NCBI RefSeq assembly: GCF_022846255.1
Contig: NZ_AP025682.1
DNA: 64,000 nt
Source of the DNA: Escherichia coli
Lineage (GTDB): Bacteria > Pseudomonadota > Gammaproteobacteria > Enterobacterales > Enterobacteriaceae
Reading direction: 5' to 3' (one strand)
Part shown: positions 29,494-60,014 of the stretch, in pieces
Layout: each line of letters opens with the position of its first letter
Numbering within the stretch: position 1 is the first letter of the stretch
Made by a program: the position numbers and the translations under genes
The notes under the pieces: model-generated
What the model saw: only the letters and a program-made list of their open reading frames with translations
Told to the model about the DNA's origin: nothing
Database searches by the model: none

Positions 29494-29700
29494 TTACGGA
29501 CGGGACTGTGCAATACGCGCCTGCAGCCAGGCTTCCACTTCACTTTTCAGCCAGCGGGAGCTGCGGCCGAGTTTGATGGGAGCCGGAAAGGCCCCATCCT
29601 TGATGAGCTTGTAAAACCACTTATCGGTCAGGCCGGTCAGCTGAGTGATAAACGTCATATCGACCATCTGGTCATCCATCAGCGAAACTGGGGTGGTCAT
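29494..29700 (-). CDS. alpA: AlpA-family phage transcriptional regulator (prophage regulatory protein)
   Basis: 68-aa ORF with the AlpA signature ...ITQLTGLTDKWFYKLIKDGAFPAPIKLGRSSRWLKSEVEAWL... Confidence 0.7.
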   Translation of the reverse strand: MTTPVSLMDDQMVDMTFITQLTGLTDKWFYKLIKDGAFPAPIKLGRSSRWLKSEVEAWLQARIAQSRP

Positions 29701-30875: not shown

Positions 30876-31207
30876 GATGAAGTTTTCTGTTAATCATACT
30901 GGTTGATATGCATAACATTTCATAAAAAATGCTTTTAATTCATATAATTGATTTTTTGACTGGTTTTATCCTCGTGTGGTGGAAAGCAGTATTACTGCCA
31001 CTGTAGTCAGCATAACGCTATCACACAGAACCACCGAAAATGAAGCATTGCTCAGGGGGAAGCTGCCACTCGTATGAGTTCTCTGAACCATGATAACCAG
31101 TATTTTTCGTTTTGGGTGATTTGTTTATCGTTACAGCCATAAGCAGTTCATGTACCATTAAAAAATAATTAAGGTTAATTAGTATTATTTATAGAAGTAT
31201 GTTTATG

Positions 31208-31345
31208 TAACTCTACCTTGTAACTCTACCGTGTAAATGAACCCTGTAATTCTACCTTGTAAATGAACTCTGTCATTGTACCCTGTAATTCTACCTCTAC
31301 CTCTACCTCTACCTCTACCTCTACCTCTACCTCGTAAATACACCT
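31208..31345. repeat. Iteron-like repeat block: seven imperfect 12-13 bp direct repeats (TGTAA[C/T]TCTACC type) followed by (CTACCT)x7
   Basis: Direct reading; the hexamer array spans 31291-31332; about 0.9 kb upstream of a Rep-like gene. Confidence 0.8.
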
Positions 31346-32227
31346 TGTAACCAAGTCCTGTAGAAGTCTGTCTCATAGAAATATGTTCCTGTGCAGTGAT
31401 ACTCTCTGTAGTAGTACTTGTAACTCTGTCCTTAACTCTCTCTTCAGTAATGTAGTCCCGCAACACCTGAATATAAATCTGTAATGTACACACACTGACT
31501 GTAACGTGCTTTGTTAAGTAATACCTGTTATTTCTTCTGTTATTTTTCCTGTTGTTTTCTGTATTTTGTTGTATGGAGTAATAACTCTTCTGAACCCGTC
31601 ATCACCTTTATAGCTAAGAGTATGACTTCGCCAGTGTTGATACTGTGGATAACGGTGATTAAGGAATTACTGTTAATGATCTGTTCCTGCAGCTCACCTG
31701 ATGAGTTTTGGTAGTAATACGTAAAAGAGTATGCCTTATGCCATTAAACAGCCTTACGGAATGTTGTTTAACCCTGTACCTCTGTTACTCATGTAGTACG
31801 TTGCGGAAAGCTACGTTAATTGTAATATCTGGTTATGGCGTTATGCCTTCAGTATTAAAAACATCTTTTACCGGAGAAACAGGGAAGTGGGGAAAGGCTT
31901 TCGGGATAACGTCAGGCCATTCTGACGGTATTACGTTAATCACAGTACAGGATAACGGGAGGGTAATGGAATTTTAAACCAGAGTAGTTCCACTGTTGTT
32001 CACTGGAAAAAGTGATTTCCCACGCGCGTTATAAACGCCTTTCCGCTTCAGTCTGGTTACCAGAGCTTCAGGCGTTATATGCGCTGTAACTGGCTGTTAC
32101 GTATGCTGTTCTCTGTCTGCTTCTGATACCCCTGGACGTCGTTACCGGAGGTCACCCTGCCTGATAACGTTTTCTTCAAAAATTACGCCAGCGCTTCTTC
32201 CTGTGTTACAGAACACGAGGAAGAAAC

Positions 32228-32827
32228 ATGAAGACTTACAACACCAATCCCGGTTACGAAATGGATCCCCAGCTCCTGACACACTTTAACCAGCATCTGG
32301 ATTCATTATTCGGGGTATATTCGAAACTGTTACCGTTCAGAATGGATTTTGCTTACCGAAAAAACACCCTCAGCTACAGGTGTGCCTGCAGGTACGCCAT
32401 GTGCGCGGAGATACTGCGACTGATTAACGAAGTGGGAGAGAAACTGGTCGGGTATGCCTGGGTAATGGAATATACGGAACGTAAAGGGCTTCACATTCAT
32501 TTTGTGGGCTATCTGAACGGTCAGAGCCACAGGAGTTCGTATCTGGTATCCAGATTGATGGGAGATATCTGGAGGCGGGTTACCGAGGGTGATGGTTACT
32601 ACCACTGGTGCCGGTTTAATAAAAATTATCCGGTAAACATTAACCACGTCATTCACTATTCAGATCACAAAGCGGTGAATGCCTTACGCTATGCCCTCAG
32701 CTACCTGGCCAAACGAGAACAGAAAGAATGTGGCATCATCCTGAAATGCAGCGGGCTTCCTGAAAAAAGTAACCGGGGTCGACCGCGACTGGGCAGCACC
32801 CTGCCGGAGACTTATTCTCTGGTGTAA
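32228..32827 (+). CDS. Putative HUH-type replication initiator-like protein (YagK/YfjJ, inovirus Gp2-like family)
   Basis: 199-aa ORF with a GAGGAAG RBS; HUH-like motif LHIHFVGY and downstream Tyr-containing motif YALSYLAKRE; family assignment from memory. Confidence 0.45.
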   Translation: MKTYNTNPGYEMDPQLLTHFNQHLDSLFGVYSKLLPFRMDFAYRKNTLSYRCACRYAMCAEILRLINEVGEKLVGYAWVMEYTERKGLHIHFVGYLNGQSHRSSYLVSRLMGDIWRRVTEGDGYYHWCRFNKNYPVNINHVIHYSDHKAVNALRYALSYLAKREQKECGIILKCSGLPEKSNRGRPRLGSTLPETYSLV

Positions 32828-33192
32828 GACCCTGAACGACAACTACGGGCTGGCGCTAATTGTTACGGTCGGTTCCGGAGGCCACTTCAGGGACTCTGCG
32901 CATTTTTTACGACATGGCTATTCCGTATGAACCATACGGAGATTTAACCATGGCACATTCTTTACCATTCCTTCCGGCAACCGATACAGCGCATCCCCCG
33001 ATGTCCATCCCTGCCTGCTGACAGTTTTTTACGCCGGTGGGCCATTGTGTGACAACCACAGTGCTGTAACAGCAACCAGCCTGCTTTACCCAAACTCCAG
33101 TCCAGATTTTAACTGAACCGCCATTCACCCCCTGACCACACTGCCCGTACCGGGACAGCTGTTGCCTGCGTGTCGTCTGGCGGCTGAGGAAT

Positions 33193-33582
33193 ATGACGAT
33201 GTACGCAAAATCCTTTATTGCATTTGATGGCAACGGGCGTCTGACGGGTGCCCGTACCGCACAGACTGCACCTTACGATCGCTACACTTACCACCTTTGC
33301 GGCAGTGCGCTCAGATACCACCCGCAATACGACACTGAGCGTCCCTGGTTTGAACACACTGACGACGGGCTGACGGAGCACGGTCAGCAGTGCCCTTATG
33401 TCAGACCGGAACGCAGGGAGATACAACTGATTAAGCGTCTGCAGCAATTCGTACCGGATGCCTTACCCGTGGTGCGTAAAGCCAGCCGGCACTGCAGACA
33501 ATGTCATCACGATTATTATGGGGAGCGGTACTGCACGCACTGCCATACCGGGCACTTCAGTGAGGAGGGGGTGGCAGAATGA
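33193..33582 (+). CDS. Cys-rich hypothetical protein (zinc-ribbon-like), paralog 1
   Basis: 129-aa ORF with a TGAGGAA RBS; motifs C-x2-C ... WFEH ... C-x2-C-x8-C-x2-C-H-TG. Confidence 0.45.
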   Translation: MTMYAKSFIAFDGNGRLTGARTAQTAPYDRYTYHLCGSALRYHPQYDTERPWFEHTDDGLTEHGQQCPYVRPERREIQLIKRLQQFVPDALPVVRKASRHCRQCHHDYYGERYCTHCHTGHFSEEGVAE

Positions 33583-34004
33583 ACGGTATAAAAACGGGGC
33601 TGGGGATCACGCCGGGTGAACACATAATCAGTGCTGATTCTGCACTCAGCAGAAATATCCGGCAGTGTTTCTGCCTTTCCTGTCATGGCCGGTTGATTTT
33701 GCAGACAGATGCTCAGGGGGCATGGTTTGAGCATGATTTATATGCCCTGAGCGAGCAACAGAAGGCAGCCTGCGTGGTGCTGAATCCGGAGAAGTCCCAC
33801 CCTTACATTGAGGATATGGCGATGTTTTTATCGCCATTACCGGTCGTGCTGGAGTGGCATTGTATGATGTGCGAGGGGCTTTTTCATGGGAAGAAGTTCT
33901 GTGAGGCCTGTGGTACGGGGATTTATTGCAGAGCAACATGTACGAAGTATGTTTACAGGTACCAGCCAGATTTGTACCAGGACTGCGGAGGTGCACTCAC
34001 TTAA
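33579..34004 (+). CDS. Cys-rich hypothetical protein (zinc-ribbon-like), paralog 2, translationally coupled to paralog 1
   Basis: 141-aa ORF; ATGA start/stop overlap at 33579-33582 with a GAGGAGGGGG SD; same C-x2-C ... WFEH ... C-x2-C ... C-x2-C-G-TG pattern as paralog 1. Confidence 0.45.
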   Translation: MNGIKTGLGITPGEHIISADSALSRNIRQCFCLSCHGRLILQTDAQGAWFEHDLYALSEQQKAACVVLNPEKSHPYIEDMAMFLSPLPVVLEWHCMMCEGLFHGKKFCEACGTGIYCRATCTKYVYRYQPDLYQDCGGALT

Positions 34005-34706
34005 TCCGAAATGCCCGCTCTGCTCAGGGCGTTCAGGCTGACTATCAATGGCATACATTTTATCCGGTGTTTCGCACCCACACCGTGCAACGACTCGACA
34101 CCGGATATCCGCAGTCCCGCTTACCTGAATAAAACCCGGGGGATTGATTGTGTACTGTGGTGTGAAATCGCACCGTGATCGCTGATTCGCCGAATCCGCA
34201 CTGTGGTGTCAATCAACCACACGCGAGAGTCGTCTCAGGCTTCGCCTGCCTCAGGACGATTTCTGCATAGCTAATTCCCGGGGCAACATTTATAGAGGCG
34301 CTGTGCGCTCTGATGGTCGCCACTTCTGACCCGGACCATGCTCCTGATATGTCGGAATATAATGTGATGTTAGGCATCAGAGAGGAATATTTCGATGCCC
34401 CTAATCTGGGGCGTTTGATTCTGGATGTCTGGAGCAATCCGGGCTTTGTGTCACCGGACGAATCAAAGCAGTACCACCCGGGATGTGGCGCTGGATCGTC
34501 ATTCACCGGACTGTGAAGACATACTTAAAGAGCTGATATGGGCGTTCAGTGATTTCGCCCGCGATCATCGTGGTGTGTGTGATCCGGAAGCCCGTTACCT
34601 CGCCGGTAATCCTTGGTATCCGTAGCAGGCCAGCTCTGAAAGCACAGCTCAGCAGATTCCCCGCATTCGCACAACCTTCATAAATCTCACAGAGGACATT
34701 GTGGCC

Positions 34707-34916
34707 ATGTTGACCACAACAAGCCACGACAGCGTATTGCTGCGTTCCGATGATCCCCTGCTCGACATGAACTACATCACCAGTTTCACCGGCATGACCG
34801 ACAAATAGTTTTATAAACTGATCAGTGAAGGCTATTTTCAAACTGGGCGGTACAAAAGCGAAGTGGAGCAGTGGATGCAGCAGCGAATAGAGGGAGCGTG
34901 GGGGCAGCAGGATGAA
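34707..34916 (+). pseudogene. alpA-like regulator pseudogene (in-frame amber at codon 34 replacing the conserved Trp; normal stop lost)
   Basis: Translation MLTTTSHDSVLLRSDDPLLDMNYITSFTGMTDK-stop-FYKLISEGYFQTGRYKSEVEQWMQQRIE parallels the intact AlpA at 29494-29700; TAG at 34806-34808. Confidence 0.5.
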
Positions 34917-35816
34917 ATGTGTTGTGATGCCGGTACGCTGGCATTGTGCAAAATGCCGGCGCTACTATTGTGGAAATCAGCCCTGTCCCTGGTGCTGGCG
35001 ATACTCCCTGCAGACATTCTCCGGTCAGCCAATAGGTTGTTGCTCTTTCCTGATCGATTCGTCATTCCATTCTTTTTGTTTATAATGGGCATTACACTGG
35101 TGTTGGCGTGTTTACCTGCGTGTCTGCACCGGTTCAGTAAAATTAGAAAAGTTCAGAGTCGGGGGAAATCCGGCGTTTTGTTCAGCAGGCGGTGGATCAC
35201 TGGCCAAATCTGTTGGCATTTCACTTCACGTTCCATTCGACAGAAGGAAACATCTACGGGCAACAGATTCATGCATTCTGCACTTCCTTTTACCAACAGA
35301 TACACAAACGTATTACTGCACGTACTCACACGACCAGTCCATCATCGCCGTTGGTGTTACACTGGCTGCTGGAACAACATGGAGGAGCAGTAATACGATG
35401 CGTATTGCTCCTCAGCCAGACGAGTATTTGTCATCCGCGAGCCAGCGTCACGGTTGATGAAGAATGTTCGAAACTGGTGGATTTATTGCAACAGATCTGG
35501 CCAGTGATAAGCACTGGCGGACAATGCCAAGTGGAAAGGTGTTTTCAGGTTGCCCGGGGTGATACATCAGAGCAATACGTTGCGTTAAAAACAGATGCGT
35601 TGTCGTTTGCTGTGTCGGATCACAAATCATCCGGTGCAGAGTAGTATTCTGGCTGTATTCTGGTAAATCAGCGTATTATCGATATATTATCGTACTATCA
35701 GAAACCGTATCGTCTGTTGATGGCTAGACTGGCCCCCCTGAATCTTCAGACAACCAATATCACTTATTTAAGTGATAGTCTTACTACTAGTTTTTAGACT
35801 AGTCATTGGAGAACAG

Positions 35817-36182
35817 ATGATTGATGTCTTAGGACCGGAGAAACGCAGACGGTGTACCACTCAGAAAAAATCGATATTGTTCAGCAGAGCCTTGAACCGG
35901 GGATGACAGTCTCTCTCGTTGCACGGCAACACGGTGTGGCAGCCAGTTATATCTCTGGCGCAAGCAATACCAGGAAGGAAGTCTCACTGCTGTGGCTGCC
36001 GGAGAGCAGGTTGTTCCGGCCTCTGAGCTTGCTGCCGCCATGAAGCAAATTAAAGAACTCCAGCGCCTGCTCGGCAAGAAAACGATGGAAATGAACTCCT
36101 TAAAGAGGCCGTCGAATATGGACGGGCAAAAAAGTGGATAGCGCACGCCCCTTATTGCCCGGGGATGAGGAGTAAACGTCGT
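35817..36182 (+). pseudogene. insC: IS2 orfA (insC) disrupted by frameshifts
   Basis: The frame from ATG 35817 stops after 29 codons; the conserved InsC segments ([53 protein letters not shown]) appear in three different frames. Confidence 0.5.
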
Positions 36183-36198
36183 CAGTCGTTGTCGCCGG

Positions 36199-37038
36199 GT
36201 GTCGCATGAGCAGTTGCACATCATTCTCAGACGAAGTGATGACTGGAAGGATGGCCGCCGCAGTCTTCACACTGATGATACGGATGTGCTTCTCCGGATA
36301 CATCATATCATCGGAGAGTTGCCCACGTATGGTTATCGTCGGGTATGGGCGCTGCTTCGCAGACAGGCAGAACTTGATGGTATGTCTGCGATCAATGCCA
36401 AACGTGTTTACCGGAACATGCGCCAGAATGCGCTGTTGCTTGAGCGAAAACCCGCTGTACCGCCATCGAAACAGGCACATACCGGCAGAGTGGCCGTGAA
36501 AGAAAGTAATCAGCGATGGTGCTCTGACGGGGTCGAGTTCCGCTGTGATAACGGAGAGAGACTGCGTGTCACATTCGCGCTGGACTGCTGTGATCGTGAG
36601 GCACTGCACTGGGCGGTGACCACCGGCGGCTTCAACAGTGAAACAGTACAGGACGTCATGCTGGGAGCGGTGGAACGCCGCTTCGGCAACGATCTTCCGT
36701 CGTCTCCAGTGGAGTCGCTGACGGATAATGGTTCATGCTACCGGGCTAATGAAACACGCCAGTTCGCCCGGATGTTGGGACTTGAACCGAAGAACACGGC
36801 GGTGCGGAGTCCGGAGAGTAACGGAATAGCAGAGAGCTTCGTGAAAACGATAAAGCGTGACTACATCAGTATCATGCCTAAACCAGACGGGTTAACGGCA
36901 GCAAAGAACCTTGCAGAGGCGTTCGAGCATTATAACGAATGGCATCCGCATAGTGCGCTGGGTTATCGCTCGCCACGGGAATATCTGCGGCAGCGGGCTT
37001 GTAATGGGTTAAGTGATAACAGATGTCTGGAAATATAG
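36199..37038 (+). CDS. insD: IS2 transposase orfB (InsD, DDE integrase-fold catalytic domain)
   Basis: 279-aa ORF recalled as InsD-like (...[13 protein letters not shown]...NQRWCSDG...[10 protein letters not shown]...[14 protein letters not shown]...). Confidence 0.8.
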
Positions 37039-37049
37039 GGGCAAATCCA

Positions 37050-57758: not shown

Positions 57759-58949
57759 TTATATAGCTGGTGACTCTTTTCGAAGAGCATCAAGGTAGTC
57801 AGCGTACCATTGCATCATTTCTCGTCTTCCTTCAAGGTAACGAGCATGGTTGTATGTACCACGAATGCTGTTTTTGTCCGTATGTGCAAGTTGCATTTCA
57901 ATCCATGCACTATTGAATCCTTGCTCGTGTAGAACAGTACTCATTGTATGACGAAATCCATGCCCGGTAGCTTTTTTGTCATAGCCAATCTTCTTCAAAA
58001 CCATATTGACGCTTGCATCGCTGATAGGCCTGTTAACATCATTTCTTCCGGCAAAGATGTATCTGTATCTTCCAGTCAGTTCTTTGAGGATTTGCAGAGA
58101 CTGGATTGCCTGATCTGACAGAGGGACGATATGCTCCTTCCTCATTTTCATCCGGGTCGGAGGAACTTCCCATATCTTTTGGGTAAAATCGATCTCACAC
58201 CATTCCCCCATACGTAATTCTACTGTTCTCAGCCCTGTGAGCATCAACAATTTTGTAGCTTCACGGGTTACAATACTGCCGGTGTAGTTTTCGAGTTTGT
58301 ATAAAAACTCTGGTAGTTCAGGAGGAAGCAGGAAAGGGTAATGTGTTCGCTTATAGCTTTTCATTGCTATAACCAGATCAGAAGCTGGATTGTATCGTGC
58401 CCGACCTGTAACAATGGCATACCGAAACACTTCACCACATCGTTGGCGAACTTTATTAGCTAGCTCGCAGGCTCCTCGGCTTTCGATACGCTGAAGAACT
58501 GCGAGAAGTTCAAGAGGTTCGATTTCACTAATGGGTCTGTTTCCAATGTAGGGAAACACATTATTTTTGAATGCTCTGTCGACATAATCAGCGTAGCTGG
58601 CAGACCAGCCTGAAACTTTTGCGTTGTACCACTCGGTGGCGATTGCGGCAAAAGTTCTTCCTTCGGAAAGGTTTTTCTCAAGATTTTCAGCTTTCTTGAC
58701 TTCACCGGGATCTTTACCATCGGCATGTATTTTCTTGGCTTCATCCCGACGTTTGCGAGCTTCAGCCAATGTAATAGTTGGATAGGTGCCAAATGATAGT
58801 TTCTTTTCCTTCCCCGCATAGTGGTACTTCATTCGCCAGTACTTTGAGCCGTTAGGATTGACCTGAAGGTAGAGCCCACCACCATCGGCAATCTTATAAA
58901 TTTTATCTTTGGGTTTGGCTGTTTCAACTTGTCGAGCTGTCAGTGGCAT
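57759..58949 (-). CDS. P4-type tyrosine integrase
   Basis: Start placed at MPLTARQVETAKPKDKIYKIADGGGLYLQV (typical P4-Int N-terminus); C-terminal catalytic motifs HGFRHT...Y. Confidence 0.8.
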   Translation of the reverse strand: MPLTARQVETAKPKDKIYKIADGGGLYLQVNPNGSKYWRMKYHYAGKEKKLSFGTYPTITLAEARKRRDEAKKIHADGKDPGEVKKAENLEKNLSEGRTFAAIATEWYNAKVSGWSASYADYVDRAFKNNVFPYIGNRPISEIEPLELLAVLQRIESRGACELANKVRQRCGEVFRYAIVTGRARYNPASDLVIAMKSYKRTHYPFLLPPELPEFLYKLENYTGSIVTREATKLLMLTGLRTVELRMGEWCEIDFTQKIWEVPPTRMKMRKEHIVPLSDQAIQSLQILKELTGRYRYIFAGRNDVNRPISDASVNMVLKKIGYDKKATGHGFRHTMSTVLHEQGFNSAWIEMQLAHTDKNSIRGTYNHARYLEGRREMMQWYADYLDALRKESPAI

Positions 58950-59076
58950 CTGGGGGCCTCGCAATAGATTGACCAAGATGTGCCCCTAAATAGGCCCCCA
59001 AATGTGACTTGATTTACGTTCCCCTGAGGAGAATTAAGGCGACTATTTGAGTAACATAAGTAAGGGTATGTGCTGA

Positions 59077-59640
59077 TTATAAAGGCTTTTTGTGGGGTAT
59101 GGTAGATTTCAGGAGAGGTGTGCATGGTGTCCCCTGCAGAATGATGTAAACACCTGCTGCGAAGGTAATAGATTGCATGATGGAGAACATGAACCAGTTT
59201 TTACCACCACTAAGCTCTTTCACCACATCTGCACGCGCAAACAGGCACGTCACCAGGAAAATTATGCTCATGGTAAAAGAGATAGCAACCGGCGTGTCGC
59301 GCAAGAACAGCAGACTTTTCGGCACATTCATGTCTTCAGTCGAGTGGTCTTTATTACCAAACTTGCTGCCGATGAAACCGGCCAATACATAATATAATGT
59401 TGAGAAGTGGCCGATGGCAACGTCATCAGAACCGGTCACTTTCTTCATGTACGGATGCGCAATAGCCGGGAAAAAGACCATTGCCACGCCAACAACCAAA
59501 GAGCCAACGGCTATAAGCGTAATGCCGGTCATGCCTGCTGTTGCCAGAATTACCGCTACCATCATCGACATAAACAACGTGTGATGACCGGTCAGGAAGA
59601 TAAATTTCCACGGTGTGAAACGGGCAATCAGAATGTTGAT
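59077..59640 (-). pseudogene. Internal fragment of a PTS ascorbate-family (SgaT/UlaA-like) EIIC gene
   Basis: Minus-strand translation ...FLTGHHTLF...IGH...STEDMNVPKSLLFLRDTPVAISFTMSIIFLV...ILQG parallels the central region of UlaA-type IIC proteins; no N-terminus, and it diverges before the C-terminal half. Confidence 0.4.
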
Positions 59641-59642
59641 AA

Positions 59643-60014
59643 CCATCAGAACCGCTGGACTATCCCTCGGAAACGTTAGCTGAGATCCGCCATACCGGCG
59701 CACGAGCCGGGCTGGCATTTAATCCGGCGACCCCAATCGACGCCTGGCAATATCTAGCGTCTGAGCTGGACGGCGTGATGGTGATGACCTGTGAGCCCGA
59801 TGGGCACGGACAGCGGTTTATTCCCTCTATGTGCGAGAAAATCCAAAAAGTACGCACGGCTTTTCCTCAGACCGAGTGCTGGGCCGACGGTGGAATTACG
59901 CTGGCGGCAGCACAGCAACTGGCTGCAGCCGGGGGGCAGCATATGGTGATTGGGCGCGTCTTGTTCTTTTCATCTGACTATCGCGCGACCTTAGCTCAAT
60001 TCGCCACCCTGTAA
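59643..60014 (+). pseudogene. 3' fragment of a ribulose-phosphate 3-epimerase-family gene (SgcE/Rpe-like)
   Basis: In-frame translation ...TLAEIRHTGARAGLAFNPATPIDAWQYLASELDGVMVMTCEPDGHGQRFIPSMCEKIQKVR...ECWADGGITLAAAQQLAAAGGQHMVIGRVLF matches the C-terminal half of Rpe (GLVFNPATP ... GFGGQSFIP ... VDGG ... AAGAD). A TAA at 59640-59642 closes the frame upstream. Confidence 0.55.

Follow-up and report, generated by a model that had tools for sequence, protein, structure and literature searches.

The interval from 34707 to 34915 of the 64-kb E. coli stretch analyzed here (hereafter, the window) is a true, fixed pseudogene of an AlpA/excisionase-family gene, and it is more broken than a first, sequence-only reading had it. 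We are highly confident that it is the genuine and fixed relic of a gene for a small (76 to 77 aa) winged-helix DNA-binding protein, dead four times over. From its start codon (ATG, 34707 to 34709), the frame reads MLTTTSHDSVLLRSDDPLLDMNYITSFTGMTDK, meets TAG at codon 34, as the sequence-only reading had reported, and then continues as FYKLISEGYFQTGRYKSEVEQWMQQRIEG..., giving the translation ...FTGMTDK(stop)FYKLISEG... around the amber codon. TGG (DKWFYKL) occupies codon 34 in every intact ortholog and in the second AlpA-type copy in the window (29494 to 29700, minus strand), which reads ...LTGLTDKWFYKLIKDG... around the tryptophan and whose product sequence is ...LTGLTDKWFYKLIKDGAFPAPIKLGRSSRWLKSEVEAWLQARIAQSRP; comparison with this copy bears out the proposed change from DKWFYKL to DK(stop)FYKL. 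A tblastn search of the window with a 77-aa E. coli ortholog returned two AlpA-type sequences only, the pseudogene (34707 to 34904, E = 2e-32) and the 29.5-kb copy (E = 1e-27), values that exclude a chance similarity to AlpA. The features discussed below are collected in Table 1.

Table 1. Coordinates of the pseudogene, its lesions, and the surrounding features (window coordinates unless another locus is named)
Feature	Position	Strand	Remarks
Intact AlpA-family paralog, 68 aa, same subfamily	29494..29700	-	PF05930, 37 bits
YagK/YfjJ (inovirus Gp2-type) gene	32228..32827	+	Upstream part of the same plus-strand backbone
Two DUF7828+Zn_ribbon_11 genes	33193..33582; 33579..34004	+	Same plus-strand backbone (32228..34004)
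Remnant of upstream 190-aa hypothetical gene	34280..34622	+	Residues 61-185, split over two frames; tblastn; PGAP "frameshifted; missing N-terminus"
GAGGA ribosome-binding site	34692..34696	+	10 nt 5' of the ATG; kept in most orthologous loci
AlpA/excisionase-family winged-helix pseudogene (76-77 aa when intact)	34707..34915	+	ATG to the now out-of-frame ancestral TGA
Amber TAG, codon 34, predicted helix 2	34806..34808	+	Replaces subfamily-conserved Trp34; G to A at 34807 (TGG to TAG)
11-bp deletion junction	34837/34838	+	Alignment with intact orthologs
13-bp deletion junction	34847/34848	+	Alignment with intact orthologs
G5 run, G6 in orthologs (1-bp loss)	34900..34904	+	Shifts ancestral stop 34913-34915 (inside ATGA) out of frame
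Read-through frame, 176 codons	34863..35393	+	From inside the pseudogene over the small ORF into the start of the next gene
Small Cys-rich ORF, 57 aa here	34912..35085	+	Extended by a downstream deletion; ATG overlaps the ancestral alpA-like stop (ATGA)
Homolog of downstream 182-aa gene	35153..35644	+	Residues 9-162, 77% identity; C-terminal part missing just before the IS
IS3-family insertion sequence, frameshifted transposase	35860..37044	+	FDAARGOS_536 homology ends at its right end
P4-type integrase, 405 aa	57759..58976	-	Arm-DNA-bind_3 + Phage_int_M + Phage_integrase; 44% identical to P4 Int
Independently decayed orthologs	L007 9347..9514 (82.0312); L006 6018..6215; L010 8209..8406		

To map the lesions, the locus was aligned with seven orthologous loci, four of which carry intact genes of 76 to 77 aa (CLSC36, PER04-33, STE15, and CFT073, whose 77-aa product is WP_000958492.1). 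This alignment identifies four independent disabling changes, one nonsense mutation and three deletions, and, together with the pseudogene flag in PGAP annotation, upholds the original designation of an alpA-like pseudogene. The deletions of 11, 13, and 1 bp are absent from the sequence-only reading, which had seen only the effect of the last. The 11- and 13-bp deletions together remove 24 bp, or 8 codons net, with a short out-of-frame stretch in between, and convert PKPIKLGRSSRW, which spans the predicted beta2-beta3 wing and its invariant residues, into QTGR; in a wider view, HFPKPIKLGRSSRWYK becomes YFQTGRYK. Since the region from F44 to W56 holds the invariant residues of a 37-sequence subfamily alignment, these two deletions take out the best-conserved stretch of the protein, W56 being removed by the 13-bp deletion. 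They are arguably more destructive than either the amber codon or the loss of the stop. A megablast match of the left 25 kb of the window that ended at 34837 might be taken for a recombination breakpoint inside the gene; we rejected this, as the 11-bp deletion merely breaks the alignment.

The normal stop was reported as lost and indeed is, because of the 1-bp loss in the G run: the ancestral TGA is no longer read in frame, and the open frame extends as far as 35393. Stop loss by itself would not necessarily inactivate the gene, judging from database alleles with a 3' slip of this kind, which retain the whole domain and are just longer (P0013, 127 aa); other database alleles of 117 to 128 aa, otherwise intact, show comparable extensions. 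At most, the window copy would yield a 33-residue N-terminal peptide with little of helix 2 and no wing. Suppression of the amber codon, or some use of the short peptide, is conceivable at most, but the deletions would still destroy the domain.

We used a 90-mer (34770 to 34859) that spans the TAG and both deletion junctions for an exact search of 5,426 complete E. coli genomes. The TAG version is present in 148 of them and the TGG version in none (0 of 5,426). Three further carriers, all with A at 34807, came from metagenome contigs, which were searched with a degenerate exact pattern. The amber codon is a single-base change, of a kind that an assembly or sequencing error could produce in a gene that is intact in the organism. 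However, the identical 90-mer recurs in 148 independently assembled complete genomes, with the allele in three metagenome contigs and the TGG variant in none, and the deletions of 11, 13, and 1 bp are common to all carriers. We give such an error next to no credence; these population data make it very unlikely. The lesions are thus real, in 148 complete genomes and three metagenome contigs, and, as one nonsense mutation plus three deletions, they are disabling relative to orthologs under selection (pN/pS of 0 to 0.11 among intact alleles).

The pseudogene status of the allele is already known from public annotation. PGAP calls the identical locus a pseudogene ("internal stop; incomplete; missing C-terminus") in FDAARGOS_536 (EGX93_RS10830), P27_L1_05.20 (LH371_RS06970), and O111:H8 strain 8E (KP534_RS04070). 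These RefSeq loci carry the identical allele (100% over 241 bp); the annotation differs from ours in that the 11-, 13-, and 1-bp deletions are not itemized and the feature ends at the equivalent of 34874. No close intact version of the allele exists in the 5,426 genomes, where the next-best full-length match is about 86% identical; matches of 90 to 95% in this search are partial alignments that stop at the first deletion. Neither the 5,426 genomes nor the metagenome contigs contain intermediates, that is, TAG without the deletions or the deletions without TAG.

What the gene encoded when intact can be judged from its relatives. Against a PF05930 (Phage_AlpA) gathering score of 21 bits, the intact orthologs reach 40.8 bits and the 29.5-kb paralog 37 bits; both also match PHROG "excisionase and transcriptional regulator" families and, below its cutoff, TIGR01764 "excise." The window copy, even with Trp34 restored, has no match at E <= 0.01 in Pfam, NCBIfam, or PHROGs, and by profile score its product falls outside PF05930. 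Its descent from an AlpA family member is evident from the tblastn match (E = 2e-32), a nucleotide alignment that runs through the flanks, and neighboring genes that are alike; on these comparisons, the locus is best described as a degraded descendant of an AlpA family member and not as a functional one. A database search found 2,405 relatives in Escherichia, Citrobacter, Klebsiella, Serratia, Enterobacter, Yersinia, Providencia, and other genera, with PF05930 on almost all of those listed. The 37-sequence alignment of the subfamily shows no variation at F44, P45, P47, K49, G51, R52, S53, S54, or R55 and at least 90% conservation at each of W34 and W56.

We modeled an intact ortholog with AlphaFold from the 37-sequence alignment (mean pLDDT 77, about 88 over residues 20 to 70); this model replaced a single-sequence one (pLDDT 55.8). 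The predicted fold is beta-alpha-alpha-beta-beta-alpha (strand 18 to 20, helices 21 to 28 and 32 to 41, strands 48 to 50 and 53 to 57, and helix 58 to 74), with W34 within helix 32 to 41 and W56 within the beta hairpin (residues 48 to 57). The predicted intact protein thus combines the helix-turn-helix and beta-hairpin wing of a winged-helix fold; the window copy has no wing. The best PDB match of the model is the GIsul2 excisionase (8c3t; target-normalized TM 0.87, rmsd 0.9 A, 31% identity), which also gives a sequence match at E = 1e-3, followed by RdfS (8dgl) and TorI (1z4h). Position 56 is Trp in both 8c3t and TorI, and position 34 is Thr in the former and Phe in the latter. The description of Trp34 as conserved therefore holds within the Enterobacterales subfamily (at least 90%) but not for these two more distant solved relatives.

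Among the closest known systems is AlpA of the E. coli K-12 CP4-57 cryptic prophage (PF05930), with its relatives Hef of the Yersinia HPI and the GIsul2 AlpA (8c3t). Like these, the genes studied here are small and island borne, the intact orthologs and the paralog pass the family gathering score, and the predicted fold superposes on 8c3t at 0.9 A. In contrast, the window copy is a pseudogene that stays off-profile even with Trp restored, and this subfamily sits mid-island after a YagK/Gp2-type gene, not directly downstream of an integrase. TorI (the KplE1 prophage excisionase) and RdfS (an ICE excisionase) share the predicted intact fold, and TorI also shares the wing tryptophan (W56 here), but both are only 23 to 25% identical in sequence and belong to other element types, and Trp34 is Phe in TorI. 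No close relative turned up among phage records, the best match being 41%. AlpA-family proteins are integrase-dependent excision factors or island master regulators (PMC9376610, PMC11773190), and function differs within the family, some members being regulators and some excisionases (PMC11773190). By homology, the intact protein would bind DNA in its own island, where its candidate role is either that of a recombination directionality factor, directing integrase-mediated excision, or that of an activator of island genes; the assignment to excisionase or transcriptional regulator is an analogy with these relatives. Death of the gene would presumably entail a loss of mobility or of regulatory function.

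The 29.5-kb paralog is 60% identical to the 77-aa orthologs at the amino acid level and 44% identical to P4 ORF88/Vis over 48 aa (E = 4e-9). A recent duplication of this copy was considered and ruled out, as a self-blastn of the window gave no alpA-alpA match at E <= 1e-10. The two AlpA-type copies are thus old paralogs.

Intact alleles differ from one another almost only by synonymous changes (pN/pS 0 to 0.11), indicating that the intact orthologs are under purifying selection. Across the 56 codons retained in the pseudogene, comparison with intact alleles shows 8 synonymous and 3 nonsynonymous differences (pN/pS of about 0.09, on small counts); because the differences are mostly synonymous, most of the divergence of the pseudogene predates its inactivation. 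Inactivation is then recent relative to allele divergence, which is slightly awkward to reconcile with four accumulated lesions. Other lineages show decay of the same gene. O157-type strains and SSGw1/MP1 carry a 19-bp duplication after codon 62 of the orthologous gene, giving 65 aa, and strain 82.0312, which carries another allele than the window at this locus, combines the 19-bp duplication with a second amber (TGG to TAG at Trp56), giving 55 aa. Truncated forms are also common in databases. Decay of this AlpA-like gene is thus recurrent, with independent events in different lineages.

The pseudogene lies in a module that has itself decayed. In intact loci, the gene order is a YagK/YfjJ gene (inovirus Gp2-type), a 190-aa hypothetical gene, the AlpA-like gene, a small Cys-rich ORF, and a 182-aa hypothetical gene. 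This YagK/Gp2-hyp190-AlpA-like-Zn-ribbon-hyp182 module occurs inside many E. coli islands and lies directly upstream of the pap operon in CFT073. The YagK copy of the decayed module is absent from the window and is still present in SSGw1 and 82.0312. Because the upstream gene is truncated and frameshifted, YagK is absent, and the downstream gene is C-terminally cut with an IS just beyond, the whole module is a fossil of an island backbone, no longer able to provide this regulator. A literature search on YagK/YfjJ found nothing on the module.

The small Cys-rich ORF is 30 to 51 aa long in intact loci and occurs at orthologous positions in loci L004, L005, L006, L009, and L011, with a conserved core of MKRVVMPVRWQCAKC.RWYCG..PCPWCWR. 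Its differences are mostly synonymous, with pN/pS of about 0.1 to 0.2 (small counts), and PGAP annotates it in none of the loci inspected. We dropped its assignment to Zn_ribbon_11, as the Pfam match reached only E = 0.38; the corresponding place in Klebsiella and Citrobacter is taken by a full DUF7828/Zn_ribbon_11 gene.

Both the long open frame that follows the lesions and the at least 99% identity of the block in 148 genomes could be read as retention of the locus for a noncoding or alternative coding function, whether through the read-through frame, an antisense ORF (34503 to 34841), or a regulatory RNA. However, the read-through frame owes its existence to the 1-bp slip only, and recent common descent of the block (98.8% with FDAARGOS_536 over 32162 to 37046) accounts for the near-identity. 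Further, neither the antisense nor the read-through ORF has a match in Pfam, nor do the upstream fragments, and an Rfam scan of 28 to 38 kb found no family. Promoter-like sites at the locus are not above shuffled controls, and a terminator scan likewise returned nothing over background. We consider a retained function of this kind very improbable.

The sequence-only reading went further and took the locus to mark a second, decayed P4-like element in a mosaic of serial insertions. The mosaic is real, but serial insertion is not borne out. The block from 32162 to 37046 is 98.8% identical to FDAARGOS_536, the best-matching genome for it, and this homology breaks off at 37046, precisely where the IS3-family element ends; in other strains, divergence sets in directly after the pseudogene. 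The segment from 35 to 60 kb is covered by no complete E. coli genome among the 5,426, and for 37046 to 57700 the best match among them covers 33%. The stop at the IS end and the lack of a complete genome covering 35 to 60 kb indicate that the region is truly mosaic. As a separate observation, the segment from 37046 to 57700 carries a sugar-acid catabolic cluster about 87% identical to its E. coli counterparts, comprising a UxaA-family hydrolase, an MFS transporter, a PdxA-family dehydrogenase, an amidohydrolase, and a DapA-family gene.

A separate second P4-like satellite prophage, inserted serially beside a first and then decayed, would account for two AlpA-type genes in one island region, for two YagK/Gp2-type modules in tandem on the plus strand (the second YagK surviving in SSGw1 and 82.0312), for the IS elements and gene fragments at homology breaks, and for a P4-type integrase in the window. 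Indeed, P4 resembles the window in two respects: P4 ORF88 (Vis) is a homolog of the 29.5-kb copy (44%), and the integrase is 44% identical to P4 Int, which matches it over 57780 to 58955. In a tblastn search of the window with 13 P4 proteins, however, these two were the only ones to match. The 64-kb window has no homologs of alpha (replication), sid (capsid size), delta (transactivation), psu, or the immunity genes (alpha, sid, delta, psu, cI, cII, and epsilon, all without a tblastn match), and ORF88 matches the pseudogene at E = 0.11 only.

The integrase is, moreover, the sole full-length one among the window ORFs scanned and lies 23 kb from the pseudogene on the opposite strand. By ARAGORN, the window is devoid of tRNA genes, and the neighborhood of the pseudogene lacks an integrase, an att site, and a tRNA gene alike, its neighbors being YagK/Gp2-type, DUF7828/Zn-ribbon, and hypothetical genes. 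The integrase adjoins a truncated PTS EIIC gene (sgcC-like, 59077 to 59718), followed by sgcR-yjhI-yjhH-yjhG; because it abuts this truncated gene and no tRNA gene is present, the attachment-site end of the island is atypical or rearranged. The locus thus shows neither the P4-type integrase at a tRNA site beside vis/alpA of a P4-like satellite nor its replication and helper-exploitation genes. In Gram-negative PICIs, int-alpA occupies one end and genes for primase/replication and capsid redirection come next (PMC11773190), a layout likewise not found here. Intact orthologs, too, lie inside islands, away from integrases. A second P4-like prophage is therefore unlikely, and the claim that the pseudogene marks one is not upheld.

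Islands of Klebsiella variicola and Citrobacter freundii (L012 to L015) offer a different comparison. In these, the YagK/YfjJ, AlpA-subfamily, and DUF7828/Zn_ribbon_11 genes lie on one strand, and this YagK-AlpA-Zn-ribbon core stands head-to-head with a DUF932/antirestriction/RadC/DUF987/CbeA-CbtA module on the other strand, with defense or restriction-modification cargo beyond the two modules. The window has the same layout from 13.7 to 35.6 kb, and its occurrence as one backbone in Klebsiella and Citrobacter counts against a second prophage. The two alpA-type genes may therefore belong to a single island backbone, with the pseudogene as a normal part of it, or to two related cores that accreted in tandem.

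The window also carries a tandem array (31206 to 31351) of a 13-nt unit (TGTAACTCTACCT, 11.5 copies), with a perfect (TCTACC)x7.3 at 31290 to 31333, in the divergent intergenic region between a 263-aa gene (minus strand) and the Hha/YagK genes (plus strand). Homology to FDAARGOS_536 and SSGw1 breaks exactly at the array (31262 to 31314), which indicates that its copy number varies between strains. Its position beside Rep-like (inovirus Gp2/YagK) genes suggests that the array represents candidate iterons.

The same block is found in a different setting in O111:H8 strain 8E, where an identical four-lesion pseudogene block (L016, 14365 to 17545, corresponding to 34192 to 37046 of the window) is flanked by yghD/gsp and ler and precedes LEE1 by about 2.8 kb. 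It comprises a truncated Zn-ribbon gene, a frameshifted hypothetical gene, the alpA pseudogene, a hypothetical gene, and an IS3-family pseudogene. The presence of the identical block near LEE1 indicates that the same fossil backbone flanks different cargo in different pathotypes.

By itself, the pseudogene is ordinary: it adds another decayed gene to the backbone of an E. coli pathogenicity-type island, and RefSeq flags it already. Its four-lesion allele is nevertheless a marker of a 4.9-kb block (32162 to 37046) common to 148 complete genomes of very different pathotypes, including blood and urine isolates and O111:H8 EHEC, and the distribution of this block documents horizontal exchange of island segments. 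Loss of the AlpA-type factor is consistent with a module that can no longer provide for its own mobility or regulation. The YagK-AlpA-Zn-ribbon core and the unannotated small ORF are of greater interest than the pseudogene, as are the iteron-like array and the occurrence of this exact block just upstream of LEE1. A speculative proposal, to which we assign a low probability, is that the pseudogene is the decayed control gene of an uncharacterized and very widespread Enterobacterales island core that is recurrently inactivated, its islands being repeatedly immobilized. The proposed core would consist of a YagK/inovirus-Gp2-type Rep-like protein, an AlpA-subfamily regulator, and a Zn-ribbon protein, the last represented in E. 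coli by the translationally coupled, unannotated Cys-rich ORF of 30 to 51 aa, and it would be transcribed divergently from the DUF932/antirestriction/RadC/CbtA module, with the iteron-like array (31206 to 31351) between them. The inactivating events seen are the four-lesion allele, the 19-bp duplication allele, and the amber at Trp56 in 82.0312, and one affected island flanks the LEE (O111:H8). If the core is indeed a replication/excision control unit, this recurrent independent inactivation would record the repeated immobilization of islands.
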